NCBI GenBank assembly: GCA_964187785.1
Contig: OZ076409.1
Location: 46,254,001 to 46,318,000, forward strand
Direction of reading: 5' to 3'
From: Amphiscolops sp. MND2022
Taxonomy: Eukaryota
Length of the DNA stretch: 64,000 bases
Shown: piece by piece, positions 13,514-51,054 of the stretch
Position numbering within the stretch: the stretch's first letter is position 1
How the letters are laid out: every line of letters starts with the position of its first letter
Program-made: the position numbers and the translations under genes
The notes under the pieces: generated by a model
What the model was told of the DNA's origin: nothing
Seen by the model: the letters and a program-made list of their open reading frames with translations, nothing else
Database searches by the model: none

Positions 13514-15307
<1,794 letters not shown>

Positions 15308-22600: not shown

Positions 22601-22797
22601 GGGGCAACGAGAGAAGATGCCACTATGGCGATTAAGTTAACAGTACCTGTTAACATAAACCTCATTGTACGAACATTCTTTGTTGATGCTACATACGATA
22701 CAGTCTAGCGATCAGTGTACATGATCATACATAAACTTTGTGTTTGAGATATCTTACTTTTAATTCACCTTCTTATCCAATTCTCCAGTCAATTACA
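16651..22797 (+). mobile_element. Ty3/Gypsy LTR retrotransposon (element G2), same family group as G1; several stops and frameshifts
   Basis: 417-bp direct repeats 16651-17067 and 22381-22797 (about 6 differences by eye), ending ATTACA. PBS TGGCGCAGTCAGC at 17068. Gag with Cys/His knuckles, protease NDTGSP, RT WLDD, RNase H TDAC, integrase (VDRFSKW, TDNGSCF, VERII). Confidence 0.93.
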
Positions 22798-22906
22798 ATC
22801 TATTTTCAGTTTTGAGACATCTGAGCTAACAATTCGAAAGAAAAACTTGCCCGAAAAAAAGAGGAACCATAAAAATTTTGACGTCAGTTTCAGACTAAAA
22901 TACAGC

Positions 22907-24870
22907 TGTCGCAGGCTGCCGCCTGCGATGGCACTAAGATCACGACAACAGCGGAAGGGCAAGAGACCGCGACCGGAACCTTACCAATCTACTGAGGAGA
23001 AAACATTTAAAATGCAAACTTCCATATTGTTCCGTTAATTACACTTGTTAATGTTGCTGACTCCATTTATATATATATATATACATATGTTTTGCTAGTA
23101 TTAGTCTGTTAGGGCCAATAACCAAAAGGCTCAAATGATATGTAGTTGTTTGCAAATTTGGAAATGCAGTACAACAACGCAATTGCAGTAATAAATAGAA
23201 GCAGCTAACGAGCGTAAAGGAAACGAGTTCAAGTAGACGTCACTCCAATTCCGGGGACGTCGCTTGAGCTTACTACGATTAGCCAATCACGTGCTGTAAT
23301 TCTTGCTGTACTATTGTTGTATTTGTTAATTGGCCGGTTAAGGCCGCCTGACGAAATTCCACTCTCACTGCTCACTACTTTGGTCAAACGGCCGGTTCCG
23401 GCCGTGAAGCAATAATGAAAAGGAACTAACTTATTACATCGGTACTTCATTAGTAATAATACAATTGTTCTTTCATGTAGTTTAAATGTTCATTGTTGAT
23501 AATATGAAGCTTTGTTTAGTATTTGGCCGAGTAAGGTCCATTGAACTAATATATATTGTTTCAACTGGTACTCTGGTCAAATGGCCGATTGTGGCCATTT
23601 CATGCATATTTGTGTTTTATTGTTCAGTTAACCAGATATTAACCCGGAACTAGCATGAATTCATCTCTGAAACAAATGAAGGTGCTTATGGTACTATATT
23701 ATCTGCGTGATCCAAGCATATGCAAAATAGACGAATAAGGCCATTTTCCTTCACTTCCCTATTGTGCTGTCTGTACTTACGGATTTAGGTCTATTTCGGT
23801 TTCAGCATGAAATGTATTTTCATGAATAGTGGATTCATACCACAGTCCTTATGTGCGGTTATACATTCCATTCTCAGTGTATTATATAATAAATCTTGTG
23901 TCGGCACGTGCCTCCACCTCACTTTGCGTGAGGTATGTAAACAAAGGTATTTGTTGACACTTTGATGTACATGCCTTAGTCGGCAGTTCGTTTGAAGCTA
24001 CTATTTTGACTATATGACCCATAAATGCCATTCCCTAGATGTCCCCGAAGATATGTGAATATCAGGGTTTTCATCAAGGAGCTAATGATCATATGATACT
24101 ATCAACCTAACTAGTTATGTAAGGAATGTGACTGTCATTCCCTAAAAGGTATAAATACTGTTATCCCATTGGGGAAATCATTAATTCCTTCCATTTTACT
24201 CTAGTTAAGTTTAATCTACAAACGGCACCGCTGTTATTTCCGTGTTCATTAATTCATTATTGATTCGGAACTGTTTCAATGCCAACCACTAGAAAGCAAA
24301 AGAAAGCTAGAAAGTCTAGAGGACTTGAGATGTTATCAGATATTGAAAATCTGGATATCATGTTAGGCGAAAACCATTTTGATAGAAATGAGAGAAATGA
24401 AAGTGTGAATAGTAATCAGGCCGGTAGGCCAGAAAGCTTATTTGGAGATGAACTTGGAGATGAGAATGAGAATGGGTTCCCAAACTCAAGAAATAATGGA
24501 CCAAGTCCAAATACCGAATTAGGCCATAATTCAATCAGAGAGTGTCCAAGCGTTGAGATCAATAGATTGTCAAGCGAGTTAAATTCACGTATATCTCGAG
24601 AGATGGACGAAATGATGAATAGTGTCAGTGTTCAGATTCAAAGAGCCATAAATGAGGCAATTAGTAGCCAAATTTTGCCTCAAATCCAAAATGTAGTTAT
24701 GGCCGGATCGGGACAATTGACCAAAGAGAGATGGAACGTTCCGGCCGAGAGACCGGAAGGATATTCTGAAGCACTGCAAAACTCAGAACTTAGGAACAAT
24801 TCTAAAAATAAACAGACCAACGACCGTCCCAAAGACGGAGTCACAAGCACGAACTCCCGTGCTTACGACA
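22907..24870 (+). repeat. 5' LTR of G3 (1964 bp)
   Basis: Near-identical to 37454-39419 (about 5 substitutions plus one TA-unit indel by eye); imperfect terminal inverted repeat TGTCGCAGGC / GCTTACGACA. Confidence 0.97.
24150..24182 (+). promoter_or_regulatory. Candidate LTR core promoter (TATA box and initiator)
   Basis: TATAAATA at 24150-24157 and TCATT at 24178, about 100 nt upstream of the gag ATG. Confidence 0.5.
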
Positions 24871-25997
24871 TGGTGACAGGAGAAAACGAATCTCCAATCG
24901 AAGTTCCTGAGTTTCTCACGGGACGAATCTCATCCAGAAACCATCTCGACAGGTCCTATGAGGATATTAACCTTGACACGACGATCCCAGCGCAAGAGAG
25001 AAATGCTCCGGCTGCTCAAACTGACCCTATTACTCGACTAGCAGATGTCTTGACAACGATGCAGAACAGGCCGACAGCCCAACAACTCACTATACGCCCA
25101 GTCAATTCAAACACAATGACTTTTGATGGCAAGAGTGAAAAATTCGAGCTGTTTGAGGACCTGTTCCACACGATGATCAAGATGCAACCGGAAATGACGG
25201 AACAGATGAAAATAAATCACTTCCACTCACTGCTGAGGAAGAATGCTCTCCAAACCTTCCGGAACATCAGCTCGAGCAATAGACAGACTTTAGAGGACGT
25301 ATTGGTAATATTCAGACGAAAATACGTCAAACCAGAATCACAGGCAACTGCCAAACATAAATGGCACCGTCTAGTTTTCGATCCTAACACGATGAAACTG
25401 CCAGATTTCCTTGAAGAATTAAATCAAGGGGCAGGAAAAGCATTCGGGGATCACGCACAGAAAATGATTGACAGTTTGCTCTACGCAAAACTGCCACCAA
25501 AACTGAAGCGGTCTGTAAACATGGCCAGACTCGAAAACGGCTCGTATGACGAAATAGTTGCTCATTTAGAGAGAGAGTTAGAACTAAATGCTCTTGAGGA
25601 ATCAGACGACCTACCAATGGCCACAATGACCTCCTCGACTACAAAACCTAAAACTCCTCTGTCCACAGGGCAACTGTCCGATATCACTTGCAATTACTGC
25701 AAGGAGAAGGGCCATATGGTCAAAGACTGTGAAAAATTGAAGAAGAAAAAGGAAAAAGATGCCCAACAAGGCAAACAAACTCAGAAAAAGACGTATCCGG
25801 AGTGTGGCACTTGTGGTAAAAAGAACCACCCGGAAGAAAGATGTTGGCAAGGTGCTGGTGCGCATCTCAAACCCAAACGCACCAGATCAGGTGACGCTAA
25901 TGACGGTAAACCCAATTCAAAGGCGCAGAAACCACAAAACAAACCAACATCTTCCAACTCACAGACCTCATCTTCCAATGATGAGTCAAAAAACTAA
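24279..25997 (+). CDS. gag: Gag of G3 (572 aa), starting inside the 5' LTR
   Basis: Capsid-like region (TFDGKSEKFELFE...) and two CCHC knuckles (CNYCKEKGHMVKDC, CGTCGKKNHPEERC); ends in the heptamer A AAA AAC followed by TAA. Confidence 0.93.
   Translation: MPTTRKQKKARKSRGLEMLSDIENLDIMLGENHFDRNERNESVNSNQAGRPESLFGDELGDENENGFPNSRNNGPSPNTELGHNSIRECPSVEINRLSSELNSRISREMDEMMNSVSVQIQRAINEAISSQILPQIQNVVMAGSGQLTKERWNVPAERPEGYSEALQNSELRNNSKNKQTNDRPKDGVTSTNSRAYDMVTGENESPIEVPEFLTGRISSRNHLDRSYEDINLDTTIPAQERNAPAAQTDPITRLADVLTTMQNRPTAQQLTIRPVNSNTMTFDGKSEKFELFEDLFHTMIKMQPEMTEQMKINHFHSLLRKNALQTFRNISSSNRQTLEDVLVIFRRKYVKPESQATAKHKWHRLVFDPNTMKLPDFLEELNQGAGKAFGDHAQKMIDSLLYAKLPPKLKRSVNMARLENGSYDEIVAHLERELELNALEESDDLPMATMTSSTTKPKTPLSTGQLSDITCNYCKEKGHMVKDCEKLKKKKEKDAQQGKQTQKKTYPECGTCGKKNHPEERCWQGAGAHLKPKRTRSGDANDGKPNSKAQKPQNKPTSSNSQTSSSNDESKN
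24871..24882 (+). promoter_or_regulatory. Primer binding site of G3 (tRNA-Leu-like)
   Basis: TGGTGACAGGAG abuts the LTR end; 11/12 match to the complement of a typical metazoan tRNA-Leu 3' end (TGGTGTCAGGAG), recalled from knowledge. Confidence 0.6.
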
Positions 25998-28900
25998 CTT
26001 CGCCACGACTCCAATACAACCAACTAATATCTGTCCGACAATACATCAGATCGGACCCTCCAACGCAAACTTTCCACCAATACAACCAACAATTGATGGG
26101 CTATCCCTCTGTTGTCTGGCAGCAGCAGATGGAAAAAGCTACCATTATTACTTACAATAATACCCATTTGTTCCAAAAACCAATTCCTGTATGGGATCCT
26201 GATTACACATCTGCTTTCAATAGCCGATTCAGGCCCATTCCCTTGGTAGACGATTACAACCCTACCTACATAGACCCCGATTATGGACGAGATCCCTATT
26301 GGGACACGGAACTCTACAACCAAGATCTGCTACAATTCCAATACGTCATTGATGATATCGAACTCTAAAATAAATCAGCCCATGAAAATCCTCCAATCAC
26401 CCACAACAAGAAAACTAGAGCATTGATTGAAACCTGGCAAATGAATGATGGCACAAGCCATCCGGTGTTCCCAAATCCTCTGGGGACCGAGAATACTGAA
26501 AACAGCGGTGAAATCACACCACAATCATTATTAGATGAAAAACAATTCCAAAATATACTCATCACCAGAGATGGTGAACCAGACTGTATACCCCTGTCAA
26601 CCAACATCAACCTCAAATGCAAGAAACGCATGCTTTATTTCCCAATGGACTTTGGGGAATTGACCATAGACGGACTTATCGACACTGGTGCATTATCCAG
26701 TGCAATCCCAGAGATGGACCTCCGGAAAATCAGACTCTTATCGCCACAATCAGTAATCCGGGAGGGTCCGCCTCCAAACTTCCAGATAATGGTCGCAAAT
26801 GGGCAACTAGAGACTCCCAAGAGTACAATAGAGCTCAAATTCGAAGTTGGTGACATAGAGTTCCATGAAATTTTTATAGTAATGGAACACCTAACAGGAC
26901 CGATTATAGGACTGATGTTTCTACAGAGAAACCATACAGTACTGGACATGAGACAAGGAATACTGAACTTTCCGTTCTTTTCAATGCAGCTTAAAACAGC
27001 TGATCATAAATACTCGAACGTGCTAGAGCCAATTCTAAACCCTACTGAAATAACCATGCCGCCAAACGACAGAGTCCTGATTAGGACCAATTCCTTATTA
27101 TACCCTGAAAACACCGTCACAGGAATTTTGCAACCGAGCGACCTTCTCCATGAAGAAGGCGACATCACATTCTGTCCAGCCTTGGTCACCTTGAATGACG
27201 GCAATATATTGATACCAGTGAATAACTTCACAGACCACCCTTACAAGCTCAAAAAGGGACTCCATATTGCTAGTTTTTCAGTTATGACGCCAGAACAAAT
27301 GAAATATGTCAAACCGGTAGACCCGGCATCAACCTGGCATTTGTTGCAAAACGACCAAGAGCAAGCAGCCCATTACGTCAGTAGCCTGATCAAGACGAAC
27401 AGAAATTCACAAAACCCCGAAAACTACTGGTTCCCAACTCCGGAAAATCCAGGGAATCCAGAAGAACACACTCCAATCCAGAAAAGAATCCTCCGCGAGC
27501 TACAAGCCCTACAGGACCTAGAATCCCTTGATCCCACGAAAGACGAGGAATCTAGGGAAAAATTCTTAAGAAATTTTGATTGGAAAGACTCCACCCTAAC
27601 CCTGGAAGAGAAAACCAAAATTGAAGAATTGCTAGTGGAATTTCACGACATTTTTGCGAGACACAGATTTGATATAGGCATGAATGAGGAATTCAAGGTG
27701 AAATTGACACCTAAGGACGATTCCCCAGCCTATAGCCAAAGCCTCCCTGCGCCAATAAACTTGAAAGAGGACATTTTAGTCGAATTAGCCATGCTCCACA
27801 AATATGGCATAATAACTACTTTACCGTTCTCGAAATACGCCAGCCCAATATTCGCCCAAAAGAAACCAAATGGGAAGCTACGACTTTTGGTTGACTTGAG
27901 GAAAATCAACAACCTTATCTCGGATGATTATATCAACAATAATCACCCTGTTAGCACCTTGGTTGATGCTGCCCAACACTTGGCAGGCAAAAAACTGTTC
28001 TGTAAATTAGACTGTTCGCAGGCATACCACTGCCTACCAATGGCCGACCAACGCTCAATTGAAATGTTGGCTTTCAATTTTGCCAGTCGTACATTCGCGT
28101 ACAGACGCTTGGCACAAGGCCTTAGTCGGTCACTATCCGCATTCTCGAGTTTCATGAGGGAATACCTCGACAAAGTCATTAAAGCGGATCAGTGCGCCCA
28201 GTATGTGGACGATATCGGCATCGCAGCCAATGATGTTGAACACCTCATAATGAACCTGAGAGCAACATTCAAATGCATTCAGGAAGCAGGCCTTAAGCTG
28301 ACAATGCACAAATGTCACTTTGGTGCAAAAGAAATTGATTTTCTCGGACGGACTATTACCCCGCAAGGCGTCAAACCTCAGAAACAGAACGTGCAAAACT
28401 TCCTGGAAAAGACTAAATTCCCAAAGTCGAAAAAGGCTTTGCAGCGCTACTTGGGATTCTTGAACTACTACAGAAATTATGTCCCAAGACTATCTGAACG
28501 CCTTGCTCCATTCTACAAGATGCTCAAAAGTGACGAAAAGGTCCTAGTATCGAAAGAATTAGTCCAACAATTCGAAGAAATCAACAAAGCACTTGACAAA
28601 TGTTGCGATTTGGCATTACAGCAACCCATTCCGAACAAACAAATCGCACTAATGACTGATGCAAGTTTTGGTGCAGCTGGATATGCGGTCTTAATAGAAG
28701 ACGATCCAAACCAGAAATTCACATCTCTCCGAAAATCCTACGCACCGGTGGCCTACGGATCAAAAACCTTCACCCCAGCCCAGATCAAAATGTCAATATA
28801 TGCCAAGGAATTTCTGGCAATTTACTTTGCATTCAAAGAATTTGGACATATATTCTGGGGTGCGCCCAAACCGGTCATTATCCTTACCGACAACAAAGCC

Positions 28901-31225
28901 GTCACGAGATTTTTCCAAACGAAAATAATACCCCCAGCCCTATGGAATGCATGCGATTATGTGATTCAGTTCAATTTTGTCATAGCGCATATTCCGGGAG
29001 CACAGAACACAGCAGCTGACTATTTGTCCCGATTGGAGGCAGATCCGAAGGATAAATTAGTCATGAAAATCCGTGAAGACGTGCAAACTTTACCCATTGA
29101 GATAAATGTTCAATCTGCGGGGGTATCACAGGAAGAACAAATATTCTATACGAATGATGATGACGAGACAGAGGAACAGTATTGGGCAAGAAAAGAAGCA
29201 ATCAGGAAAAATCCAATGACTGATGAGCCCACTGTTACCATAGAAACTCTGTCAACCAATTTGGTCAAACAACAACCAGATATCCAAGTCCGATTAAAGA
29301 AAACAAACCAGATAATCATCGAGCAGTCCAAAGATACAGTATTGCAACAATTGAAGGCAAAGCTCCTTCATGAAGACTATTCAGAAAACATACTGCAACA
29401 GGATGCCCGATATAGACACTACGCAAATAATCTGGAACGAATTGTACTCAAGGACGAAATCCTGACGAGGCAATATTTTGATGAAACAGGGAATGTTAAA
29501 TACCATCAAATTTTGCTACCACAACACCTACTTCGGGAATTGCTCCACTCCCTTCACGGGACAGCGCATAAACATCCCGGGATTTCAAAAATGTTGCAGG
29601 AAATCAGACAAAGGTATTACTACCCTAGCATGGCTAAACACGTCAAAAAGTGGGTAGAAGGGTGTGAACAATGTGCCAGAGACAAGAGAGTCCCTAACGC
29701 AACGATCACACCTGAGCTGCTCAACTTGCCCGAATGGGACCTTGGACCTGAAGACGCCATGCAGATTGACCTGTTACCGAATCTTCCCCCAAGTGGAGGG
29801 TATGAAAATGTCCTAACGGCAATCGACGTTTTCTCCAGATATTTATTCGCTTATCCCCTTACAGACGCATCAGCGATCAATGTGGCAAAAGCGCTCATTG
29901 ACATAATGACCAAGCACGCATATCTGCCAACGACTCTTATTACTGACAAGGGTACTGCATTCACTTCTACGATTATTGCGGAGGTTACGCAAATTTTGGG
30001 CATTACACTCAAATGTGCAACGACAAAGCACCCGCAAACAATTGGGAAATTAGAGCGGACCCATGTCTCATTAAAGACAAACCTCAAAATGGCATGTGGG
30101 GAATACCGCCGACAATGGCATAAATATCTGCCATTAGCAGTACTTAATCATAATACGAGTTATCATGCCAGTATCGGTTGTGAGCCAACGAGAGTATTCC
30201 ATGGCAGAATTCCCTACAACATCCTGGATCACAAGCTTGGAAATAATCCAAACGAAAAGATCAGCCCTACAACCGAATTTGCTGACAAATTCCAAAACCG
30301 GAAAAAAATCCTAATTGACAAAACGAAGCAGAACATTATGCAGTCGTATATCAAGTACAAAGAATATTACGACCGCAAAGCAAAAGCTGCTCCATTGAAA
30401 GAGAATGATTACTGTTTCGTCCTACAGCCGGAAGCGGATCATCAAGGATCAAAAATTCCATTCCGCGATTACCGTTGGGTTGGACCATTTGTAGTCCAAA
30501 AGGTTTTGCCAAATGAAAACTACATAATACGAAGAATCAATACGAACAAAACTCAAATTTTGCATCGCATTCGACTTAAAAAGTTTATTCCCAATCAACC
30601 GCTTGAGGACAATTTCCGAGAACAACGTCTGCAGCCAGACGAAGAAATTGTCATTCCGCAAGACGACTTATACGTCATAACGTGGGAAACAGACTTCGGC
30701 GAACAGCTAGTTACACGAGGCAACGAACCTATTCCGACTAGCTTGCCGAACGGCGAACGGCCGAGTACGGCAGAAAACACAAATGACGCAAACGAGAATG
30801 ACGTGGATTACATAATCACGCGAGAAGGATTAAACAACGACAACGCGGTACACAGTCGGAATGGCCGCTTAAGTCACGACGCAACGACAAGTAATGACGT
30901 CACCGAAGAAGCATCGAATGACGAACCTGATTGGCCGAACGAGGCCGGTTTACCGAAAGCTCACGAAACACATTCACCGAATACAGCAAATGACCTCAAA
31001 AAAGACAAAATTATTCCAGAAAGCCCAAAAGACAAGGAAATTTTCCCATATGAAAATTTGCGAACCGAAACTGATGCACAAAATTCTCCAAGAACGGGGG
31101 ATGATATTATCGTGCCCGAAATATCCGAAAACGATGCTAGAAATGAAAGCCTGAGCCCTAGAGGAGGGAAATATAATCTCAGGCCTAACCCTAACCCAAA
31201 CTACTCAGAAGACTTCAGATACTAA
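25988..31225 (+). CDS. pol: Pol of G3 (PR, dUTPase-like insert, RT, RNase H, integrase) in the -1 frame; one in-frame TAA at 26366-26368
   Basis: 1600-codon ORF 26423-31225 with LIDTGA (PR), YVDD (RT), MTDAS (RH), H..H/CEQC and IDLL/TDKG/LERTH (IN). The same frame is open back to the gag slippery site except for one TAA. Confidence 0.95.
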
Positions 31226-31459
31226 GAATTGAATTTCTTCCCGAAAATGGGAATTCTCTTCTTTTCATTCTTTTTATCTTTTTTCAGTCCCATGCAGCAG
31301 TATTTTTTGAATAAATAATGGGACATTTGAATGATCCCTTACAAGAAAATAAATACGGGATCAGGAAATCAAGGCAACAACGAACAAAACGAAAATAAAT
31401 ACGAAACAGAAAATGAACAAAAGATACAGTCTACAAGTACATAAATACATATGTACATA

Positions 31460-34400
31460 TTAGTTCTTAGAGGATCCCTGGACAAGTTTCTTGGAGGCGG
31501 ATGAGACAGTAGAACTACTGCTACCCATTCTTTTCCGTTGGGTCCGGGAAGGAAGCTTTACGGCAGAGTCATCCGGCACGGAAGAGGCAATTCCTTTCTC
31601 CAGACGAACAGACCGTGGGGGGGAAACAGCAGTGACGACCTTATAGGAGGCAAGAAGGCTCTTGTAGATTTTGGACCTCCCGAACTCATCCACAAAGGTC
31701 CATGGATCATAGTCAGGGGAGAAAGCGGAACGCTCGAAGGAAGAACTGAGAGCTGAAAACTTTTCTAAATTAGCATCAGAGCAACAATGTGGAATGGAAT
31801 CAGGCACGCAAGAAAGGTAACTCTGACAGGGCTCTATCAGGTCAGCAAAACGGCCTCGGTGTCCAGAAGTGTTAACACTCCCGAAAGATACTGGAGGATA
31901 TTGGGGACTTTGTCCTGTCAAACACAAGCAGCACAGCTTGAAGAGATGGAAAATGTGCTCATGAGTTTGAAAAAACTCGAGCTGCATCAGGAAGTCTATC
32001 AGGTCGGTGGAATTTTCCTTGAAATCGAAATCTGGAGGATAATTGACTCGCAGGTGATCTAACAAAGCCAAATACTCATCTCGACAGACGTTCTCATTCT
32101 CACTGGAAACCCAAGAGCGAAGCTGGAAGGTCGAGTACAACACCTCAAAGTGACGGAGTCCGACCTCACTTGGTCTCTTGAAGAGGACAAAAGGGTCAAA
32201 GGCGGCTAACCCCTTGATCACCTCGGAACTCAGGCCGGCTTGGTTGAGGACCTGCCTGATCAGGTACTGAATGAACTGTAGTCCCTCTTTGACGAAACTG
32301 CTGGTTGTTTCTGCAGCTGTCTTGTCAATGGCGGCCTTCTCGGACTTCTTGTTCAGATGAACAACATCGGCACACTGTTTGCTGGCAGTAGCTATCCGAT
32401 TTGTCAATCGGTGCCGGATAAGGAACTCTTCCTCGCTGATGAATTTTCCTTCGCTCACGTTGAAATTGAGGAGAAGGAACCACGAATTCTCGAGAGGGAT
32501 GGTTTCCGGCAAGTAGCATCTGGCACATAGCTTGGAGACGAAACGGCAGACTTCTCCACAGAGGAAAAATGACGCATCTCGTCGGCCTAGCAGATTGACA
32601 ACGAAACTGGAAACATCTGGAAAATACAACGGACAAGATCATGAAAGGAACAAAACGTTCACATGAACCCATACCAATATGCCTATTGTGCTAGTAGCCC
32701 AAGGAATCAAGGATCAAGGACCGTTCTGATAATGTCTTAAAGTACCGATATGGACATGTAGCGGTATACTCACAATCACTGATTATGCGTTGGAAGAGTT
32801 CCAACTTGACGACGAAGAAAGAGTCGCAGATAAGAGACCACTCGAAGCTCTGCACTTGATTGTGGAACCCCTGCATTCCTTGGTGTGGAGTATGTGACGT
32901 CAGGTACTGCCGGACTGCTTTCCAATGTTTCAGGAGTTCCCGGCAGAGGTTGGGTAAACTCGGTAAGTCCAGTTTGCAGGTATCAATGGCCTAAATGAAC
33001 CCGAATTGTCTTTTGTCCGAACCTACCCCCCTAACCTTTTACGCCTCATGTTTGAACTTAATATACTAACTCGTGCTAGTTCAGGGGATTGCAGGACCCA
33101 GTCTTCATCGGTAGCTGCTCCAAGTGAAACCATGAGGCACTTCAGAACAGAGAAGAAGTCTATTCTGCCAAACACACTGAAAGTGGGTTTGTGCATCATC
33201 TTCTGAGCTGCAGGTGCTCGAAGCGAAAGCAACTCTGGACAGCCCGAGGGAAGAAAGCATTGTAGTCGATAGTCCGAATCAGCTCCACTGGACATCCGGA
33301 ACAAGCGACTATATCGGCCTTGGTGGACACTACTGAGAGAAGTCGAGAGAGGGACCCCAACTCCCCAGTAAGATCAGAGGAAGGAAGCCCACTTCGGCAC
33401 ACGTAGATTCGGCAGAGGGTGTCGCCCTTCCAGAATTTGACAGACATGAGTCTGTTCACTCCCTGATCCTCAAACTCGATGGCAAAGTGCTGTGTGGTAG
33501 CAATCTGATTTGCTAAATCGTTCATTGCACAATTGAAAATATGCTGGAAGATGGCCTGAAAAGGAAAAGGAGAATTACGAAATGTGTGGAGGACTTTGGT
33601 TTCCCACGAGCAGTGCGCAACCCAATAGAGAACTTACCGAAATTCTTTCTTCGCCCCAATCGAAGTCGCAGTAGCTGGTCTGGTAATTGGTCAAAGAGCC
33701 TATTTGGGACCACAATTTGCGGAGCATTCCAATATCTCCAAGTTGCTGTATGAAGTTCCCAATGAGTTGAATCTGCGTCTTGGTTCTTGCTTCAGGGGTG
33801 ACGAATGTGGTGGTTGTTCCTTTTATGAAATCATCATAGAAAGGGAAGCGTTCTCCGATGTCCACCAGCTCAACGTGCATAAAGTGGCGCATCTCCTTAG
33901 CCAACTCAATCTCTGAGAGGATCTTCCCATTGCGGCCTCTCACTCGATGTTGCACCTTTCCGGACACGGGGTGGACACTTTTGAGGTGCTCGTAGCGCCA
34001 TCTTTGATCTCGTCGGAGGTGCTTCTCCGTCCTGTGGTGTCGCAGGATTTCCAAAGTGCCCTTCGTCTTCACGGAGATATTCTTTTTGCATAAATGGCAC
34101 CATACCATATACGGATTGTGAAGCGGATCTGCTGGTCCGGAAATGAACGAGCGCGTCCATCCGATTTTGGAGAAAAACTCCTCTTTCATAGGGACACCTC
34201 GAGTCTGCTTTCGTTGCTTCCGTCTTGGCGCTTTACCCGAACTCGAAACTAAAGGCGGGGCAGGAGAAGTTTGAGTCCGTAACTCGGAAAGAGTGGCATC
34301 AAGGCTTGACTGTTCTGCTGATTCGAAGCCTGCTTGGGAGGGATCATTTTGAGTAGTCCCGCAAGAAGTTGAAGCAGGTCTGAAAGGCTCCTTGAAGGCT

Positions 34401-35590
34401 TGTGAGATGAGAGCCATTTCTTCGGAACTATCTGTGTCATTGGAGGAGTCCAGCCCTCTGTCCTCTTGTCCTGAACTTGTTCCGACAGACGTATCAGTTC
34501 CTGACTCAGGAAAATTTTCAGAGCGTAGGCTGCCATCAGAATCACTATGAAGTCCAGGTCCGGGAGTTTGGGCTCTTGGCCTGATTCGGAAATGGTCAGT
34601 TCGAGAACTGGAAGTGACCGGCGCTCCGCGAACTGCCCCAATCACCATCTGTTCCATGGCAGTGAAGGACATCTTCAGGGTTTCATCTGTAAGAACCCTC
34701 AAAAGATGATACACTTGTGGCTCAGTAAAAGCCACTGTTCTATGGCCGAGAGGGAAATTGATGGTGGTAGCATCCTGATCAAAGTACTGTTTTAAAATGG
34801 CCCGGCTGCGACCGGAGAGCTCCCTGACGCCAGAATCTTGCCCTGCAGACGTTGATGTTGACGGACGCATGTTATCCGGACGATGAATAGGAGTGTCAAC
34901 TGACGACTCCCCTGCAGTTTCTGCCACATTTCCTACTGGCTGGAAACTGTATAGAGCTGGTCCACTTGCCTGGCTGGATGTATCACCGGCTTCCTCAGTC
35001 CCAGTCACGTCATCCAAATATACTACATCTGTGACTCCAGTCGGCAATTTAGGGGCATCACATACAGATGAACCTTCATCAGTCTCATGTTGAAGGAATG
35101 ATGCTGCTGACATGTTGGCAGAAGTTCCGCAAGTTGTCAACAATTCTGGCAATTCCGTCTGAGTGGAGGGAGCAATCGTGAGACCGGCTTCTAGCTGTGA
35201 TAAATCCAGCCCTGCAGATTCACTGGGCAAGTCCTTGGTTGGAGTGCTAGTTTGGAAGAGCAATGTAGAAGTTTGGGGTTCATTCCCAACAGTAGGCGAA
35301 CCTTCAGGGGCACTCTCTTCAACCTCCTGTTCCCCGATTTCAGAACTCTTGGCAATCTGTCTCTCTTCCTGTTCCTGGGCCCGTGCAAGAAGCAGAACTT
35401 TCTCATCAGCGTATGCCGTGACATCGAAATCACTATCAACACTGAAAGGAGAGGGAGTGACTGTATCCTGGGCTCCTTCTGTTACCGCTGCTGTTGACAT
35501 GACAATGGTGGTGGATGAAGTTGGAGAATACGGAGCAATTGGATCGGGACTAGACCTTGGCATAGTTATTGGAATAGGACGTCGGGGCAT
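31460..35590 (-). pseudogene. Antisense spliced accessory gene inside G3: ~1300-aa BED-zinc-finger, hAT-transposase-like protein; exons 35590-33638, 33555-33071, 32990-32675, 32616-31460; one frameshift (~33198) and one TAG (32693-32691)
   Basis: GT-AG introns of 82, 80 and 58 bp (GTAAGT..TTTCAG, GTTAGT..ATTTAG, GTATGG..TTCCAG) join the ORFs in matching phase. WCHLCKKNI...ILRHHRTEKH is a BED-like finger. Downstream segments resemble hAT transposase. Confidence 0.75.
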
Positions 35591-36753
35591 CTCGGTGAAA
35601 TTGTCTGAAGAAGTGGTGTTTCGAATCTGTGATTCGTCAATATTCTGGTTTTCTAAACAGAATGAGATGAAATTTGGCGGTGAGCTTCCTTGAAAAAAAT
35701 CCAATTTACCGCGTTAGAAAACTTCCGGAAGTGCTATGAAAATTCGAATGAAATGTGTTATCACGCATTTATTGATGGAAACAGGAAGCATTTTGTGAAC
35801 GAATTTAGCCCTGATCAAGTTAAATTTGAGTTCAAAAAAGAAACAAACCAACCTTCAGTTGAAGACATTCTGAGCTGGGACGAAACGGGAACTGCTCCAA
35901 TCGGATTGCCGCCACGAAGGAAATTGGCCGGACTCGGCTTGAAGGGGAGAAACAGAGATACTCTGAAGAGAAGACTGACTGGAGGGATTGGAGACAGAAA
36001 GGATAGTTTGACAATGAAGACTGACCGGATGAATATGGACGAGGAAATGCAATTAAAATAAAAGGAATTGGATTGGAATTCAAAATAAAGAATTGAAGAG
36101 TTGGAGTTCGTGGCTGAAGATTATTACCAGACTAATATTATGGATTATCTACATATTTATTCTGTACATGGAGTCTGCCAGCGAAGTGTACAATGGATTT
36201 TGTTATTTACAGCTTATTTAGTTAAAGGGCCGGTTATGGCCGTTTGCCCTGTTTTGTTTCGCCGTTTTGTCCAGTTACCCTAGTTACCCTTAGCTAGAAT
36301 TTTCGCCATCTTGAATTATTTAGATTTATTATTTTCGCCATTTTTATTATTTAATTTCACAATTTATCGAAGCTTGACGCTGATTGGTTGAAGCCATTTT
36401 GAAAGAATTCCGCGTCGCATGCTGTTAATTGCTATCAGGCAGACTGTTAATTACCCACTTGAAACGGGTGAAGATGATATTTACAACTCAAGCGTCGTTA
36501 ACACCTCTCAGAGTGATGGTGCTGATAGAGGGTAAACAGTGAGTTATCAAAGGATGCCGAATAATTATAAAATTCCATTCAGGAATGTTTACGTCGGATC
36601 AGGACGATTTACCAATAGCTCAACCGCCAAAAACGAATTGCCGGGAAAAGGCCCGACTTGGCCAAATTCTTGAACTGGTGAATTCATTCCACTTTGAAAC
36701 TTTAAGCAAACCAGTCAACTCCTCTGCTTAGCAAGATTGCGAAAAAACTAATA

Positions 36754-37542
36754 ATGCAAAGATATAACTTAACCAAGAAGCCCTTCGACTTTGAAGAAGA
36801 GGATTCAGAAAGTTCAACAAATTCGATAATCTACATATCCAGCGACAGTGAGGATGAGGCTTCAAGCGATTGGGACTCAGACTGGTCTACTGATACGGAG
36901 GCTATAATAGACAGGATTGAACGGGAAGTTAAAGCGACACCAATTCCTATTGCCGGACGGGGAATGACAATGGAAAGCTCAGATGACGAAAGGGCGGCAG
37001 GACCCAGCTACATTCAGTCTGTTCCGCCTTCTACCCCGAAATTGGGATTTGAGTACTTCAACAGGGAAATGTGTCTAGCGCCGTCCAAAAGGCAGAAGAA
37101 GACGAGGGTTGAGCTCTGCACTACTGTTTTGCCTGTTTTGGAATCTCCATTATCTCCTCCCGACCATGAGAGAGGACCAAGTATTGATACTCCTCCTGTA
37201 CAGTCGACTTCAGGGACTTTCTACGCCTCGTATCATGTGCAAAATATCAAGCCTTACCAGAACGTCAGTGAAAGTCTACACACGGGCTGTATGGTATGTG
37301 GTAAATCGAGAGAGCAGATAAAAGAGGAAAAGATCAACTGGTATATGGAGAGATCGACGCCCAAGAGTGAACCAGCCTATATCACCGCATTACGACGAGA
37401 AGCATACTCTAATGGTTTAAATGCAGGTAGTCTACTTTTCCTAACACCCGCAGTGTCGCAGGCTGCCGCCTGCGATGGCACTAAGATCACGACAACAGCG
37501 GAAGGGCAAGAGACCGCGACCGGAACCTTACCAATCTACTGA
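36754..37542 (+). CDS. Accessory ORF of G3, 262 aa, acidic N-terminus, unknown function; last ~29 codons lie in the 3' LTR
   Basis: ATG-initiated uninterrupted ORF with IIYISSDSEDE (SIM-like), PSKRQKKTR (NLS-like) and CMVC; AATAAA downstream at ~37739. Confidence 0.7.
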   Translation: MQRYNLTKKPFDFEEEDSESSTNSIIYISSDSEDEASSDWDSDWSTDTEAIIDRIEREVKATPIPIAGRGMTMESSDDERAAGPSYIQSVPPSTPKLGFEYFNREMCLAPSKRQKKTRVELCTTVLPVLESPLSPPDHERGPSIDTPPVQSTSGTFYASYHVQNIKPYQNVSESLHTGCMVCGKSREQIKEEKINWYMERSTPKSEPAYITALRREAYSNGLNAGSLLFLTPAVSQAAACDGTKITTTAEGQETATGTLPIY

Positions 37543-39419
37543 GGAGAAAACATTTAAAATGCAAACTTCCATATTGTTCCGTTAATTACACTTGTTAATG
37601 TTGCTGACTCCATTTATATATATATATATATACATATGTTTTGCTAGTATTAGTCTGTTAGGGCCAATAACCAAAAGGCTCAAATGATATGTAGTTGTTT
37701 GCAAATTTGGAAATGCAGTACAACAACGCAATTGCAGTAATAAATAGAAGCAGCTAACGAGCGTAAAGGAAACGAGTTCAAGTAGACGTCACTCCAATTC
37801 CGGGGACGTCGCTTGAGCTTACTACGATTAGCCAATCACGTGCTGTAATTCTTGCTGTACTATTGTTGTATTTGTTAATTGGCCGGTTAAGGCCGCCTGA
37901 CGAAATTCCACTCTCACTGCTCACTACTTTGGTCAAACGGCCGGTTCCGGCCGTGAAGCAATAATGAAAAGGAACTAACTTATTACATCGGTACTTCATT
38001 AGTAATAATACAATTGTTCTTTCATGTAGTTTAAATGTTCATTGTTGATAATATGAAGCTTTGTTTAGTATTTGGCCGAGTAAGGTCCATTGAACTAATA
38101 TATATTGTTTCAACTGGTACTCTGGTCAAATGGCCGATTGTGGCCATTTCATGCATATTTGTGTTTTATTGTTCAGTTAACCAGATATTAACCCGGAACT
38201 AGCATGAATTCATCTCTGAAACAAATGAAGGTGCTTATGGTACTATATTATCTGCGTGATCCAAGCATATGCAAAATAGACGAATAAGGCCATTTTCCTT
38301 CACTTCCCTATTGTGCTGTCTGTACTTACGGATTTAGGCCTATTTCGGTTTCAGCATGAAATGTATTTTCATGAATAGTGGATTCATACCACAGTCCTTA
38401 TGTGCGGTTATACATTCCATTCTCAGTGTGTTATATAATAAATCTTGTGTCGGCACGTGCCTCCACCTCACTTTGCGTGAGGTATGTAAACAAAGGTATT
38501 TGTTGACACTTTGATGTACATGCCTTAGTCGGCAGTTCGTTTGAAGCTACTATTTTGACTATATGACCCATAAATGCCATTCCCTAGATGTCCCCGAAGA
38601 TATGTGAATATCAGGGTTTTCATCATGGAGCTAATGATCATATGATACTATCAACCTAACTAGTTATGTAAGGAATGTGACTGTCATTCCCTAAAAGGTA
38701 TAAATACTGTTATCCCATTGGGGAAATCATTAATTCCTTCCATTTTACTCTAGTTAAGTTTAATCTACAAACGGCACCGCTGTTATTTCCGTGTTGATTA
38801 ATTCATTATTGATTCGGAACTGTTTCAATGCCAACCACTAGAAAGCAAAAGAAAGCTAGAAAGTCTAGAGGACTTGAGATGTTATCAGATATTGAAAATC
38901 TGGATATCATGTTAGGCGAAAACCATTTTGATAGAAATGAGAGAAATGAAAGTGTGAATAGTAATCAGGCCGGTAGGCCAGAAAGCTTATTTGGAGATGA
39001 ACTTGGAGATGAGAATGAGAATGGGTTCCCAAACTCAAGAAATAATGGACCAAGTCCAAATACCGAATTAGGCCATAATTCAATCAGAGAGTGTCCAAGC
39101 GTTGAGATCAATAGATTGTCAAGCGAGTTAAATTCACGTATATCTCGAGAGATGGACGAAATGATGAATAGTGTCAGTGTTCAGATTCAAAGAGCCATAA
39201 ATGAGGCAATTAGTAGCCAAATTTTGCCTCAAATCCAAAATGTAGTTATGGCCGGATCGGGACAATTGACCAAAGAGAGATGGAACGTTCCGGCCGAGAG
39301 ACCGGAAGGATATTCCGAAGCACTGCAAAACTCAGAACTTAGGAACAATTCTAAAAATAAACAGACCAACGACCGTCCCAAAGACGGAGTCACAAGCACG
39401 AACTCCCGTGCTTACGACA
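37454..39419 (+). repeat. 3' LTR of G3 (1966 bp); contains a copy of the gag N-terminal ORF (38828-39448) that terminates in flanking DNA
   Basis: Direct repeat of 22907-24870, followed by the TSD ACAGC. Confidence 0.97.
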
Positions 39420-40100
39420 ACAGCCTACGAAACTCGTTTATAATTTAAGAAACACAGGACTCCGTATTTGGTCTCGGTTCTGAGATCTTTACAAAACCAC
39501 TTTAAACAAAAACATGGTTTCAATATAACTATCGGTTCCGCGAAAGTTGCCTGATAACGTTGAAATTCTTCCACATGTCTCGACAATCGAGGAAAAAAAA
39601 TCTTTCAGGAAAATGATTGAAACTTTTAGTATTTGTAAACGCCTATTTCGCGGTGAAAGAATTTCGCAAAATAACGAAATTGACAGTAATAAACGCAAAC
39701 CATGCTGCCGCGTCGGTTAGTGTCTTTTTGGGTCATTTTCAAGTGTTCCTGGTAGTGAAATTTAAAATTAGCGAAAACCCTTATAAGGCTCAAGCAAAAC
39801 GTTTCTCAGTATTTTTATATCGTTAGATTTGCGTAGGTTTCAGCGGCAACATGGATGGTCTGCGATGAAAAAGTTTCCAGAAAGTTTCCAGGCTAAGCTC
39901 GAAGCCTCAAAACTCAGCTTAAAAACCAACACTTTGCCAATAACAGAAAACTCATTTTCAACCTCATATTAATTAGACTAACATATGAAAATAGACTCGT
40001 TTGCCTGGTTTTCTGAACAATTCTTTAAATTTGTAATATTGGATTCAGACCTCATATCAATGACACATTCAATTATACACTGTATAAATATAATTCCAAA

Positions 40101-41770: not shown

Positions 41771-44261
41771 GTACAAAACCTTGGTCAAATTGTATTCACC
41801 ATTCAATGATCTACTGGAGGAATTTAATCTCCTACCTAGATCCTACTTGGTAGTGAAAAATTACTTCATTTTGTTGTGGAAGGTGGAAAAATCTATGTTG
41901 AAGGTGATATTAGTTTTTCAACAGCAGGTGTCAATACGCGCTCTGCCTCTTTTACATCATTTCAGGTTCCAAATCGAGTGAAGCTTAAATCCAAAAATGT
42001 TTTTATGTCAGAGCCCCACGACTAGACAACCACCCCATCTCTGCTGGAATTATTGACTTCTCATGGCCCCTTCAGAAATGCAAGAAAGCATAGCACAGTA
42101 TCTTGAAAGAAAAAGGAAAAAGTTTCGATGAAAACGTGTCCTGTACTTTTTATTTGAAATTTTTGTCCTACTTGTAGGTGTTAAGTAATACATTTCTAAA
42201 AACCAATTTTATTTCATACTTACAATTTTGATTGTATGCCTTTCCTTATTTTGGAATTGAGTCTTCCTAATCTAATCTAAAGAACATCGTGCACGTATTT
42301 CGTTAGAAAGGAAATGACTTCAGTGACCCGGAAGACACATTAAGTTTCCTGTCAATCAAAACAAACTGTTCAAAGAAACTTCTCTAGTTTTCTAACGAAT
42401 AGGGGGATACTGTTTTTCCTTTGCCCAATTGTTTTCAGCAATGTCTCATTGATTGTTTCGTTTCATCTTCTGGCCTGTCTGCAAACTTCCTCGCAACTTC
42501 CTCAAATTTTAAACATCTTATCACTAAACGAGGTAAGCTGTTTCGAAAGCATAGACTACATAGGATTTTTGGCTCATGGTCGTTATAGCGAACATTTTCC
42601 GAAAAATATCATTTTTTAGACTTTATAGTTTTGAACACGAAAATGGAGTTACAAATCGATGCAGTGTTTATAGTTATATGTTTCTCAACTGAAATTTTGA
42701 GTGTGATTATTCACTGGTTTTTCAGGCAATTTCATTGCACATTTTTAAGGATCTCAAAAAATTAGTGGATGATCATTTTGGTGTTGCGCAAACGTATAGG
42801 TCAACGTTGAGTGTGAAAAATCTGCAGAATTTTGGCAAAATATTTTTTCTAAGCAGCCTGTTTTGATTTTCAACGTTCTGTTTCTCCAGGGCAATTTTTG
42901 TTGAAATGTGGAAAAAAAGGAAATAACGAGAAATTAGTTACCTACTAATCGAAACAGAAAGAAGGCAGCTATGTAAATAAGAACCATTTCATACCTTCAT
43001 GATTTTCACATTGACGCTTTTTTGAGCCAATTTTTCCAAAAATTCTTAATAAAACTTCATCAGGAAGTAGACACTTTGAGTTCGACATTTTGCTTTTTCC
43101 ATTCGGAAAAGGATTTCAACAAGCGGGGTACAGCCTAGTCAACGTCCCGCTAAAAAGAGTGAAACAAAAATAGTTGTTCCAAAAATTTTCAAACTCAATG
43201 CCGAAAAAAAACCCAGAAGGGAGAACCCATAGGACTAAAAAGGCTTTTCTTGCCAGAAATAAAAAAACCAACACTTTTTCCGTTTCGTCACCAGAAACAT
43301 CAAAGAATCAAAGCAAGAATCTTTTTGTGAAATGAAATTTTCCCAAAAATTTGCATAATGCCAACAAAACCCAAAATTCTCCGAGCTTGAAAAGTCTTTC
43401 ATTATCCAAAAATATCAAAAAACCGAAAAATGAAAACTTGGATTTTTTCGAATAGTCGCACAATTCCGAAAACAACAATCAAATTCCATTTAATCCGAAT
43501 AAGTATGTCAAAATACGAATTCAGCATTTTGGCAGTCACTTCGACCGGATTGAAAAAAAAACAAAAAACATGGGAGGAAGAGAGCTTTGCGCAAGGCTAA
43601 ATAGATAAGCGAAAGGGTAGAAATCATAGGAGAATAAGTATCTTACAGCGAATCAATTTTCCTCAGAAAGCTATTCAATTTTCGGAATATGAACGGCCCA
43701 TTTCTCCGTAATGGAACTTTTTCAAGACACAACTGACATGAAAATTCGCAGGGTCTTTTGTTCTACCGATTCATAGAACTTTCACGCTCACTGGCTTATG
43801 TTAAAGACCTTAATTTGACTAAAACAAAACTTACCCTCTCAAAATTATCATTTTTCAAATTTTCGTCGAAGAAAAAACTATCGAAAAACTTTCCGACAAC
43901 TAAAAGTTACACCATGGTGAATTCCAACCTTGTGTATATTTTTTTCAAAAAGTAGAACGCTTCGATAATTGCGCTGAAATAAAACGCTTCGAATAAAACA
44001 ATTGAGAGGGATATCACACTCTCAGACGGGAAGATTTTAAGTGTTAGAAAAGATGTCTATCAAGGCGGGATATATTCAATCTTTTCTTCTCAAAATTATG
44101 TAATCCAGTGAATCATACATTTAAAAGTCAATGTGTTTCAGTTAGTTCATATAGTAGTTTGATGAGTCATTTATGACAGGCTCCACCCCCCCCACGCTGC
44201 AAGAAGGAGAGAGGGGCAAGGCGACTATGTGGTGAAGAAAAATGATTGAGCGAGCGAACCG

Positions 44262-47200
44262 TTACGGGGCGAAAACAGGGGAAAGCGAGACGGCCGGGCG
44301 TTCGAAAGTTCCGTATGCTGTTTTAACAGTGCACACTCGGGTAACTCCATCTTTCCCAGGGTGGGTGGCTGTTATTTTTCCCAGTGGCCATATGCCTCGA
44401 GGAGTGAAGTCTTGCAGCAACCATACAATATCGTTAACTTTGAGAGGGGACGTTGCTTTGTTCCATTTCTGTCGTCGATCCAAAGTTGGCAAGTACTCCT
44501 TCAAGAATCGTTTCCAAAAGTGGTTTGAAACTTTTTGGACTTCTTTCCAGGAATTGAAAAAGAGCGGTTTATCTGTTTCTTCAAAAACAATCGGTGGTAT
44601 GTTTGCGAATGGGCGGTGTAGAAGGAAGTGGTTTGGTGTTAGAGGTTCTTCATTTTCTGGCTGGTCGTTGACATGGGTGAGTGGTCGCGAATTCAACATC
44701 AGCTCGGTTTCGGCTAAAATTGTCGTGAAAAATTTGAGCGTCAGTTTTTGGGATCCAAGGATAATCAGAAGTGTTCGTTTTGCGGTCTGGATCATCCTTT
44801 CCCAGGGACCACCAAAATGAGGCGCAGAAGGAGGATTAAAATCCCAACAGATTTCTTCTGCGTGAGGAATTTTATTCTGAACAGCGGCGATCCCATCGTT
44901 CAGACAGGCTTGCAGTTCACGGCGCGCTCCGACAAAGTTCTTGCCGTTATCGGAACGCAGTAGACGCGGTTGTCCTCGTCTGGCAATGAAGCGGCGGAAT
45001 GCATTCAGGAAGCTGTCAGTAGTCATGCTAGAGCAGGATTCGAGGTGGCAGGCGCGGGTGACGAGACAGTTGAAAATGATGCCGTAATGCTTTTCAGTCT
45101 TACGGCCGTTGACAATGAAGAAGGGACCGAAGAGGTCAACTCCAGTTTTTTTGAACAGGAACGGTGATTTCGGGCTGGGAAAGCGTAGTTGTGGTAACGG
45201 AGCCATTTCTGGTTGGACGTTTTCAGCACGAAAACGGCGGCAGATAAAACAGCGATAATTGATTGAGCGCAACGCGGCTCGGATACCGAGAACTTTGAAT
45301 CGTTGTTCGACAAAAGCTTTAACGAATTCGGGTCCGGCATGACAACAGATTTCATGAGCGTGCTTCAAGTAGAGTTTTGTTATGGGCTCCTTCGATTCAA
45401 GGAGTACAGGAGTACGAATTGCTTGAGCGAGCGGTGCGTATACGAGACGGCCATGAGAGCGCAAGAGGGAATCTTGATCGATGAACGGTCGGAAAGGTAT
45501 GAGTTTGTCGCGCGAGGTTGGATCCAGATTTCGACGCAGCTGATGAAAAGTAGAGGCAAACGACAAAGATTGCGATTGTTTGATAAGCGCATGATTGGCT
45601 TTGCGAAAGTCTTCAGAGATCAGTGTTGAAGGTGAAGTCGGTGAACGAAGGCGACGGACGAAACGAAAAACGTTGGCGACGACTTTTAGTAGGTTGCTCC
45701 AGGTGGAAAAACGTTCAGTGTCGAAAAGGACTGACTTTTGATCAATAACGATGGCTGTACAGGTTGTTTGCGGTCGTTTGGGCCATTTTTCGGCCGATTC
45801 ATTGAGAAAGGATGGACCTTCGATCCATTTGGCGGGAATTTCGTCGGGTCTGAGACCACGGGTACCGTGATCTGCAGGGTTTTGTTTGGTTGGAACGTAT
45901 TTCCAGTCCAGCGGGTCAGAATGTAGAGTAATTTCATTGACTCTGTGGGCGACAAAACTCTTGAGTTTGTTCTGTCGCTGTATCCAGTCCAAAACGACAC
46001 AACTGTCGGTCCAGAACTTCACAACTGGGAAGGAGCAAGAGAAGGCGTTACGGACGAATCGGAGCAGACGGACTCCAAGAACGGCGGCTTCAAGTTCCAG
46101 TTTTGGAATGCTTTTTTGCTTAATCGGGGAGACACGGCTCTTTCCGATGACGAAAGTTTGTTGAGCTGACGTATGCGAAAAAGTTGGTTGACGAGCATAA
46201 ATGACAGCGGCGAAAGCGGAATTGGATGCGTCTGTAAAGACGTGGAGTTCCACGGTTGTGGCTGATCGGAAAGCACGGCGAGGTACGGAGACAGTCGGCA
46301 TTGCGCGGTAACAATCAGTGAGTTTGTTCACGGAGGTTTGGATGTGATCGGGAATGGCCTGGTCCCAAGTTTGACCAAGTTTCCAGAGAGATTGAAGGAT
46401 TATCTTGAATTGGATCACTAGCGGTGATAGTAAACCGATTGGGTCGAATGTTGATGAAACTAGGCTGAACAGTTGTCTGAGCGTGGCCGGATTATCAACG
46501 GACTTAGGTGGCGGTGCGGTGTAAGAGTCAGTGCGAAGACACCACGTTTGACCCAAAACCTTGGTTTCGGATGCAGATTTTTCACGGTCTTCGGTGGGAA
46601 TGGAGGACAGGGCATCACTGTTATTGGAGATAAACTTTGTAAGACGGAAACCTCCACGCTGGAGGACGGTACGTAGATCGTTTGTCAATTGACGGGCGGC
46701 GGCTGGTGTTGAAAAGGATTGGATGAAGTTATCCATGTAAAAATTGTTAAGCACGGCTTGCAATACGTCGGGGAATTGGGAAGCGAGATTTTGGGCGCAA
46801 CGGCGGAGTACGAATATGGCGCAAAACGGAGAGCAGTTGGCACCAAAGATGAGGCGGATGTATTGGTATTGGACTACGTAATTATCGGATATCCAAAGGA
46901 AGCGGAGGGCTGATTGATCTTCAGGGCGGATTGCGATTTGCATGAACATTCCTTCAATGTCGGCTAGGACACCAACGGCGTGTTCACGGAAATGGAGGAT
47001 GAGTTCGAGCAGGTTTGCAAGAAGATCAGGTCCTGCGAGAAGATTGGAGTTCAAAGATTTATTTTTGTACTTCGAGGCAGCATTTGCTACACGACGGACT
47101 TTCCCGGGTTTGTTAGGGTTTTCTACGGGATGAGTTGGTAAGTACCAAATTTTTTCAGGCGGCGGATTCTGCATTACAACGGGCGTAACGTACTGTTTCT

Positions 47201-50200: not shown

Positions 50201-50293
50201 CAGTTGAGATGCTAGATAATTGGATGAGTTCGTGAATTTGATGTCGTGCAGCTTGAATTGATTCTGCAGGGTCTGCTGTTTCGGGTTGATCAT
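44262..50293 (-). pseudogene. gag-pol: Bel/Pao gag-pol polyprotein of B2, broken by a stop at 48281-48283 and a frameshift near 47700
   Basis: KLPPIQIPKFDGD gag motif, triple Cys/His knuckles, ALIDFGS protease, RT (ADIEGMFMQI; YMDN instead of YMDD), RH (VFTDAS), IN (SDNGKNF, PWERMI). Confidence 0.92.
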
Positions 50294-51054
50294 CTTCGTT
50301 GTTCTGTGGTTAGTTGTAGAAAGAAAACAGCACACGGAACTTGCTTTATCCGTTCGTAAACGCGTGAATGGCGAACACACCTTTGAATCTAAGAGAAACT
50401 ATCTCGGAGCGCTAGTTTTTTTGGGTGTTAGCGGAACAGAGACGAAGCGTGCGAACCGTAATTCGATCACAAAGACGCTAGCGAGAGCCGAAAAAGGAAT
50501 TGAAGATCTGGACGAATCAGGACGCACCTAGACCTGAAAGACCAGCAGTGTATGCTGTGGTAGAGCTACGGCGACGGACGCAACTTTTTGGTTCCTACCG
50601 ACTTTATGAGAATGTGACTATCTACGATATTGACTTTACACTCTAAGATACTTCAAGTAAACTTTCTTGCCTAGGGGAAGACTTAGTTTGTTATTTCCAG
50701 AAGTTTCCTTTCTGAGACAACCACTTGAAACTATATCTCCTAATCAGAGAAGTGAGGAACGAAGGTCAAGAAAAAAACGCAAATATTGTGCTTTTTGTCG
50801 AGGAAAGCTGAGAAAAAGGTTTACAAAAACTACCCAAGCACTCTCCTTAGTGCAGCAAGGGTTAGGGTGAAAAGAGTTTTTTGGGAGTTGTCATTCGGCG
50901 TAGATCCCATTAGTCAGCAGAAAGGGTCTTTAGTAGAAAACTGTAGGCGTCAAAAACTCGGATCGTAAAAAAGTGGCATCAAATCGTGTTCAGGATTCTG
51001 GCAAAAAGTCGGTAGAGAGCGTTCATAACCACTAGTCGTTGCAAAAAGCAGTCT

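Follow-up and report, generated by a model that had tools for sequence, protein, structure and literature searches.

How can a retroelement carry a gene with several introns through reverse transcription, and what would such a gene do for it? The question is raised by a 64,000-nucleotide stretch of the genome of Amphiscolops sp. MND2022 (GenBank assembly GCA_964187785.1, contig OZ076409.1, positions 46,254,001 to 46,318,000), hereafter the window, within which coordinates are counted and where a real multi-exon gene lies on the minus strand between pol and the 3' long terminal repeat (LTR) of a Ty3/Gypsy retrotransposon. Antisense introns stay in the genomic RNA and thus survive reverse transcription, i.e., owing to its orientation the gene is reverse-transcribed whole. 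As to its role, the overall best explanation, to which we assign a probability of roughly 0.55 from sequence comparison, is that it encodes a dead hAT-like protein kept to regulate transcription or chromatin of the element itself.

A resident gene under purifying selection

The host of the antisense gene is one 16.5-kb LTR retrotransposon (22907-39419; Table 1) whose LTRs are 99.64% identical over 1,966 columns in a self-BLAST. Given gag and a pol in the order protease, reverse transcriptase, RNase H and integrase (PR-RT-RH-IN), the element is of the Ty3/Gypsy type, although pol of the window copy is broken by a stop at 26366-26368 (frame survey). The assembly searched (1.07 Gb) returned 929 candidates for a 561-bp DNA probe, among them 40 scored copies at 96-100% identity, and 7,693 candidates for a protein probe, 150 of which were scored. 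The gene sits beside pol, on the opposite strand, in 66 of the 67 loci examined, down to ca. 30% protein identity, i.e., in 39/39 close copies, 20/20 divergent loci (ca. 45% identity in exon 1) and 7/8 deep ones (ca. 30% in exon 4); these loci are the top-scoring matches, and rare free-standing copies may remain beyond them. The exception (L102, G000:C2:92177736-92187726) is an inverted duplication of the start of the antisense gene and of ORF3, a third open reading frame (ORF) of the element, without pol in 10 kb. All seven divergent elements fetched whole measure 16.0-16.2 kb and have young LTR pairs and 5-bp target-site duplications (TSDs). The lineage is thus a large, abundant and recently active family (LTR pairs 98-99.9% identical), and the initial annotation of an antisense, intron-bearing gene inside an LTR retrotransposon is borne out by LTRs, TSD and pol linkage.

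Selection on the gene is strongly purifying: the core has a ratio of nonsynonymous to synonymous substitution rates (dN/dS) of 0.03-0.07 and the disordered arm one of 0.07-0.22, versus 1.7-3.3 in shifted frames. Antisense-gene and integrase trees, from which 4 of 29 loci were excluded for want of integrase (INT), RNase H (RH) or ORF3 matches, and of which the INT tree is a quick version, have their deepest split in common (support 100), with the antisense gene ca. six times more diverged than integrase. Taken together, we consider residence in the element, the exon structure as seen by comparison and purifying selection to be practically certain.

These data bear directly on the notion of a nested hAT DNA transposon, whether a neutral passenger or a still-active transposase acting in trans. 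The gene does have introns and a promoter-like region of its own, and a related clade on other contigs (P0324, P0326, P0406-8) is without intron 1 and seemingly without the long N-terminal arm, which could speak for such a transposon. However, a search for terminal inverted repeats (TIRs) around the gene in the window copy gave none above chance, the best inverted repeat being 11 nt with 1 mismatch, equalled or beaten in 78/100 shuffles. The near-constant position beside pol, the deepest split common with integrase, dN/dS far below 1 and catalytic positions that are not D, D, E (see below) all point the same way, and we regard this explanation as already largely refuted and extremely improbable.

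Further afield, a profile search gave 802 cluster representatives at E <= 0.001; among the 150 matches listed is P0317, whose best identity in this genome is only 39%, so the gene family is probably present in at least one other genome. A distant clade (P0324, P0326, P0406-P0408, P0420-P0427; ca. 27-33% identity, contigs of 4-29 kb), with its missing intron 1 and seemingly short N-terminus, is a candidate donor or basal lineage; P0324 as query found no relative in a JGI metagenome scan. Three matches lie exactly 14,673 bp apart (G000:C7:62497428, 62512101 and 62526774), suggesting a tandem array with shared LTRs.

Corrected gene model and intron loss

The gene model was checked on an alignment of 39 close copies. 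The initial annotation had joined five ORF pieces through three GT-AG introns; introns 1 and 2 stand (GT-AG in 40/40 close copies), but the donor of intron 3, put at 32674, lies at 32773, where GT is found in 19/19 divergent families, and the gene has four exons coding for 1,308 aa. A TAG at 32693-32691, previously counted as a lesion, is none because it is a stop in 39/39 sisters and falls inside intron 3. Similarly, the ATG at 35590 from which the protein had been read is present in 1/40 copies, that of the window, whereas the start at 35704 is kept in 38/39 close sisters and was lost here. The frameshift (earlier placed at ca. 33198, here near 33206) is indeed private to the window copy, being shared by 0/39 sisters, and under the corrected exons the 1,308-aa frame is unbroken in 18 of the 39.

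By comparison across families, the introns are real. Among 19 modelled divergent families (of 20 divergent loci, L065 being omitted as its third exon was unplaceable), GT-AG ends are found in 72 of 74 introns, the other two ending in GG, some of these boundaries having been picked with GT/AG as a guide. Boundaries taken from protein alignment alone also carry GT or AG (intron-1 acceptor 19/19, intron-3 donor 19/19). Introns are 67 to 230 nt long and fixed in phase; the frame is open for more than 1,250 aa in 11/19 families, in two of them via the GG acceptor. Indel sites in close copies number 28 per kb in introns versus 6 per kb in exons. Moreover, three junctions are backed by natural intron-less relatives, i.e., the P0324/P0326 clade for intron 1, L107 for intron 3 (its frame crosses the junction), and an additional exon-3 intron, present in 17/19 families and precisely absent from the window copy, its sisters, L077 and L079. 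As L077 and L079 group in a nested clade, the absence of the additional intron points to loss.

A probable disabled hAT transposase

The predicted protein starts with an acidic S/T/P-rich region (S+T+P 33%, D+E 15%, K+R 6% over 484 aa), followed by a putative nuclear localization signal (NLS), KAPRRKQRKQTR, both as first described; the basic character of the latter is kept in relatives. Next comes a CCHH finger whose first C is found in 31/32 rows and whose second C and two H are in 32/32; the likeness to the N-terminal BED finger of hAT transposases, whose ligands are CCHH or CCHC (PMC10368747), lies in this ligand pattern only, with no Pfam zf-BED match. The parts as predicted, i.e., a finger, a helical stretch, a putative RNase H-like core, a putative helical insertion and a hAT-C-terminal-like domain, would follow one another as in hAT transposases (Hermes) and in domesticated hAT proteins (ZBED, FAM200/GTF2IRD2-like).

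Catalytic positions, placed via hAT motifs and rough fold ranges, are as non-evident as the initial annotation had them: the putative first Asp is E in 30/32 rows and the second is S in 28/32 (in the window copy E at 33471-33469 and S at 33300-33298), and no conserved acidic residue occurs at exon-4 positions 226-256 in 44 rows, a conserved D lying at 257, off the expected spot. Such a loss of DDE is also described for domesticated hAT proteins (PMC3285750). The segment CFRFEHLQL, earlier aligned with the hAT motif CxxHxLxL, fails in this respect, with its H in 3/32 rows, and the CxxH that follows the second Asp in active hAT transposases (PMC3285750) is likewise missing (C in 17/32, F at the H position in 29/32).

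Similarity searches leave room for an element-borne accessory gene assembled from another RNase H-like or host family, with finger, alpha/beta and helical parts of non-hAT origin. No BED or hAT match was returned by Pfam, be it for pieces of the window, for alignments A5 and A2 or for any of 11 distant relatives; PDB sequence searches gave 0 matches in one case and a chance match at E 0.48 in another; and Foldseek had no match, to hAT or otherwise, at E <= 0.001 for either predicted model. For exon 2, DegV-type folds rank above Hermes, a repeat fold search of exon 4 did not list Hermes, and a complex prediction for exons 2 and 4 gave no answer (score 0.00). The absence of DDE and CxxH would fit such an origin as well. 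On the other hand, fold searches point to consecutive parts of Hermes, the domain order agrees, and hAT-type families come up for two distinct parts in Atlas, where the C-terminal Dimer_Tnp_hAT (PF05699) reaches 0.93 with 23/30 hits (no HMMER hit in 44 members). We thus view the non-hAT origin as very unlikely and the protein as probably hAT-derived and, if so, with still greater confidence as catalytically dead. The earlier reading of a domesticated, transposase-derived DNA-binding protein is supported in part. The appearance of the gene is that of a DNA-transposon enzyme that was disabled and then retained as a helper protein binding DNA.

A putative regulator of its own element

Upstream of the gene, in the 1-kb gap that separates it from ORF3, blocks of non-coding sequence (35722-36464) are conserved in at least 7/10 families with indels of 1-2 nt between them. 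A coding explanation was rejected, as there is no shared ORF, and the blocks contain ETS-, E-box-, CCAAT- and YY1-like motifs, which suggests a bidirectional internal promoter. Downstream, where the stops of pol and of the antisense gene converge, the spacer has a pol-strand AATAAA in 24/25 families versus 41% in shuffles (2 of 27 loci, without a pol end, were excluded); it may terminate the gag-pol mRNA ahead of the overlap with the antisense mRNA. Just past the antisense stop, a near-palindromic 21-nt block (31437-31457) is conserved in 10 families, a possible 3'-end or hairpin signal.

We infer that the gene is expressed. In the scenario that we favor, a transposase-derived gene would have shed both terminal repeats and catalytic residues, retained the zinc finger and the oligomer-forming scaffold and come to bear a long acidic disordered N-terminus. 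Antisense transcription would start from the internal promoter, head-to-head and in common with ORF3, the host would splice the transcript, and the resulting nuclear DNA-binding protein of ca. 1,300 aa would bind the element's own conserved motifs and hold its copies transcriptionally open, acting as a trans-activator or anti-silencing factor. The combination of finger, oligomer-like scaffold, basic stretches and acidic disordered arm speaks for a transcription or chromatin regulator, preferably a self-activating or anti-silencing one, and we put the chances of a DNA-binding regulatory role of this kind at about even.

The same parts could serve integration or nuclear import, i.e., the protein, of identical origin, might bind element cDNA and serve as a tether between the pre-integration complex and chromatin or particular sites. 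The DNA-binding and oligomer-like parts and two basic stretches are retained, hAT BED domains bind subterminal repeats in assembling the transposition complex (PMC10368747), and a Pfam search of the window pieces showed no chromodomain in pol. However, eight TSDs have no obvious motif in common, and in the shallow clade gene distances barely follow integrase distances (Spearman 0.18), contrary to what one would expect of a tight integrase partner; we consider this function unlikely.

A repressor or immunity factor, curbing the element's own copy number or blocking rival families or active hAT elements as a dominant-negative subunit, would account for families that are near-identical in pol or ORF3 but have strongly diverged in the gene itself, as family-specific recognition predicts, and antisense transcription by itself can damp an element (PMC7264820). 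Yet copies of the family are very numerous and its activity is recent, and acidic disordered arms are more typical of activators, so that such a role seems to us quite unlikely. For a self-regulator, the fast but constrained divergence among families likewise fits family-specific recognition, by analogy with the VANC proteins discussed below.

Other features of the element and the window

The partner across the putative promoter, ORF3, is conserved (ca. 30% identical in deep families) and lacks both a Pfam match and a transmembrane segment; a maximum 19-residue hydropathy of 1.2-1.3 rules it out as env. Since near-identical copies of ORF3 occur beside very different antisense genes, the modules appear to have been exchanged. 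The start of gag lies ca. 590 nt within the LTR, its frame continuing across the primer-binding position (24279-24870), and the 3' LTR accordingly holds a second, truncated gag start (38828-39419), likewise in the seven full elements. After the 5' LTR, a TGG-starting stretch is conserved among the full elements compared; no primer tRNA was identified for it, and self-priming was rejected as no complement was found. The bases before the 3' LTR (37430-37453) form no purine tract but resemble a splice acceptor within the ORF3 frame, in 7/7 elements.

Elsewhere in the window, a second, degraded Gypsy-like element (16651-22797; LTRs of 417 bp, 98.6% identical) stops 110 bp short of the Ty3/Gypsy element, two minus-strand BEL/Pao elements with Peptidase_A17, DUF5641 and DUF1759 (43978-51447 and 53490-56904) include one with terminal repeats of ca. 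200 bp, and a minus-strand host gene of the papain family (cathepsin L-like, several exons) spans 13400-15100. A 1.6-kb direct repeat of 99.5% identity (57658-59282 and 62376-64000), cut by the window end, is possibly the LTR pair of another element.

Table 1 Features of the Ty3/Gypsy element and its antisense gene (window coordinates)
Feature	Position	Strand	Remarks
5-bp TSD ACAGC	22902..22906 (left), 39420-39424 (right)	+	Flanks the LTR retrotransposon
5' LTR	22907..24870	+	TG...CA ends, ca. 1,965 bp; holds first ca. 590 nt of gag frame
gag	24279..25997	+	Begins within 5' LTR; CCHC knuckle and DUF1759-like, each below Pfam cut-off
pol	25985..31225	+	PR-RT-RH-IN order; Pfam RVT_1 (E 7.6e-23), RT_RNaseH, rve, Integrase_H2C2; frame survey
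Spacer	31226..31459	+	Between convergent pol and antisense-gene stops; pol-strand AATAAA at 31310, 31348, 31394
Exon 4	31460..32616	-	All-helical insertion-domain-like and hAT-C-terminal-like region, then basic serine-rich tail
Intron 3	32617..32773	-	GT-AG, phase 1, 157 nt; contains TAG read earlier as lesion
Exon 3	32774..32990	-	217 nt; divided 135+82 by additional intron in 17/19 divergent families, precisely absent here
Intron 2	32991..33070	-	GT-AG, phase 0
Exon 2	33071..33555	-	Predicted RNase H-like alpha/beta core; private frameshift near 33206
Intron 1	33556..33637	-	GT-AG, phase 0; missing in P0324/P0326 clade, whose frame crosses the junction
Exon 1	33638..35704	-	2,067 nt; encodes S/T/P-rich acidic N-terminus, then basic stretch, CCHH finger and helical region; has lost its start codon here
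BED-like CCHH finger	34019..34102	-	W-C-x2-C ... H-x4-H; ligands in 31-32/32 rows each
Basic stretch KAPRRKQRKQTR	34199..34234	-	Putative NLS
Conserved non-coding blocks	35722..36464	.	Between head-to-head antisense gene and ORF3; candidate bidirectional internal promoter
ORF3	36754..37542	+	262 aa, acidic N-terminus, CxxC; extends into 3' LTR
3' LTR	37454..39419	+	TG...CA ends; self-BLAST pair of 5' LTR

Known systems and implications

HBZ, an antisense product of human T-cell leukemia virus type 1 (HTLV-1), is spliced, and both it and APH-2 of HTLV-2 are of the bZIP type. They, too, are encoded antisense in an LTR retroelement and regulate it as nuclear proteins (PMC11963269), but are small and driven from the 3' LTR (PMC7264820), and we claim no homology. 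Antisense ORFs that lie between pol and the 3' LTR are known from plants (e.g., Grande gene23, RIRE2, Retand TRP28) and from a fungus (Boty) (PMC7264820, PMC11963269). The window gene shares with the plant aORF-3R class its position and orientation, its conservation in nearly all copies and a proposed DNA-binding regulatory role; gene23 has its own internal promoter and a nuclear product. The plant ORFs are described as of untraceable origin, unlike any known transposable element and of unknown function, a nested-transposon origin having been rejected for lack of similarity (PMC7264820, PMC11963269). Those of Retand carry a Transposase_28 domain of unknown role (PMC11963269); the corresponding PF04195 has no hit in the antisense gene or its relatives, and the word "intron" occurs 0 times in the accessible text of that paper. 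In contrast, we are dealing here with an animal host, three to four conserved spliceosomal introns, ca. 1,300 aa, a CCHH finger and a hAT-like domain order.

Compared with hAT elements, the gene has no TIR, no CxxH and a similarity below profile significance, and whereas domesticated hAT proteins are kept by the host at one locus, this one is maintained by a retrotransposon in at least hundreds of copies. The VANC proteins of VANDAL are, similarly, sequence-specific, fast-evolving accessory proteins encoded by transposable elements (PMC13547354), though of plant DNA transposons and of MAIN-like origin, i.e., a functional analogy only. Animal LTR elements with captured third genes are known from bdelloids (GDSL, DEDDy; PMC5408684), and the Oikopleura Tor element has an env with an internal promoter (PMC4402516); these extra genes are enzymes or env, unlike an antisense transposase-like gene, and the accessible bdelloid text contains "transposase" and "intron" 0 times and reports no departure from neutrality. 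Accessory genes are described only for DNA transposons in the accessible text of PMC12477816. The full-text literature searched (mostly non-subscription, without supplements or repeat databases) held no report of a spliced antisense hAT-derived gene in an LTR retrotransposon. The class of antisense accessory genes is hence known, and ours is probably a case of a multi-intron, transposase-derived animal member, which we did not find in that literature.

The locus shows that a gene of several introns can be carried stably by a retroelement, and its intron losses lend themselves to mapping on a tree. Moreover, the gene probably has a traceable source, a class II transposase; it is under strong purifying selection, its diverged natural variants are many and candidate target motifs lie adjacent to it, so that its function is directly testable. 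One transposon class has probably domesticated the enzyme of another. Going further, we tentatively postulate a domestication across classes in which a retrotransposon lineage adopted a transposase, and the dead hAT protein, spliced antisense, would form, together with ORF3, a swappable regulatory cassette of two genes that reads each family's promoter motifs and counters host silencing; the precise and repeated intron losses would reflect the element's reverse transcriptase copying spliced antisense mRNA back. If true, a cassette that counters silencing would help explain the expansion of this lineage.

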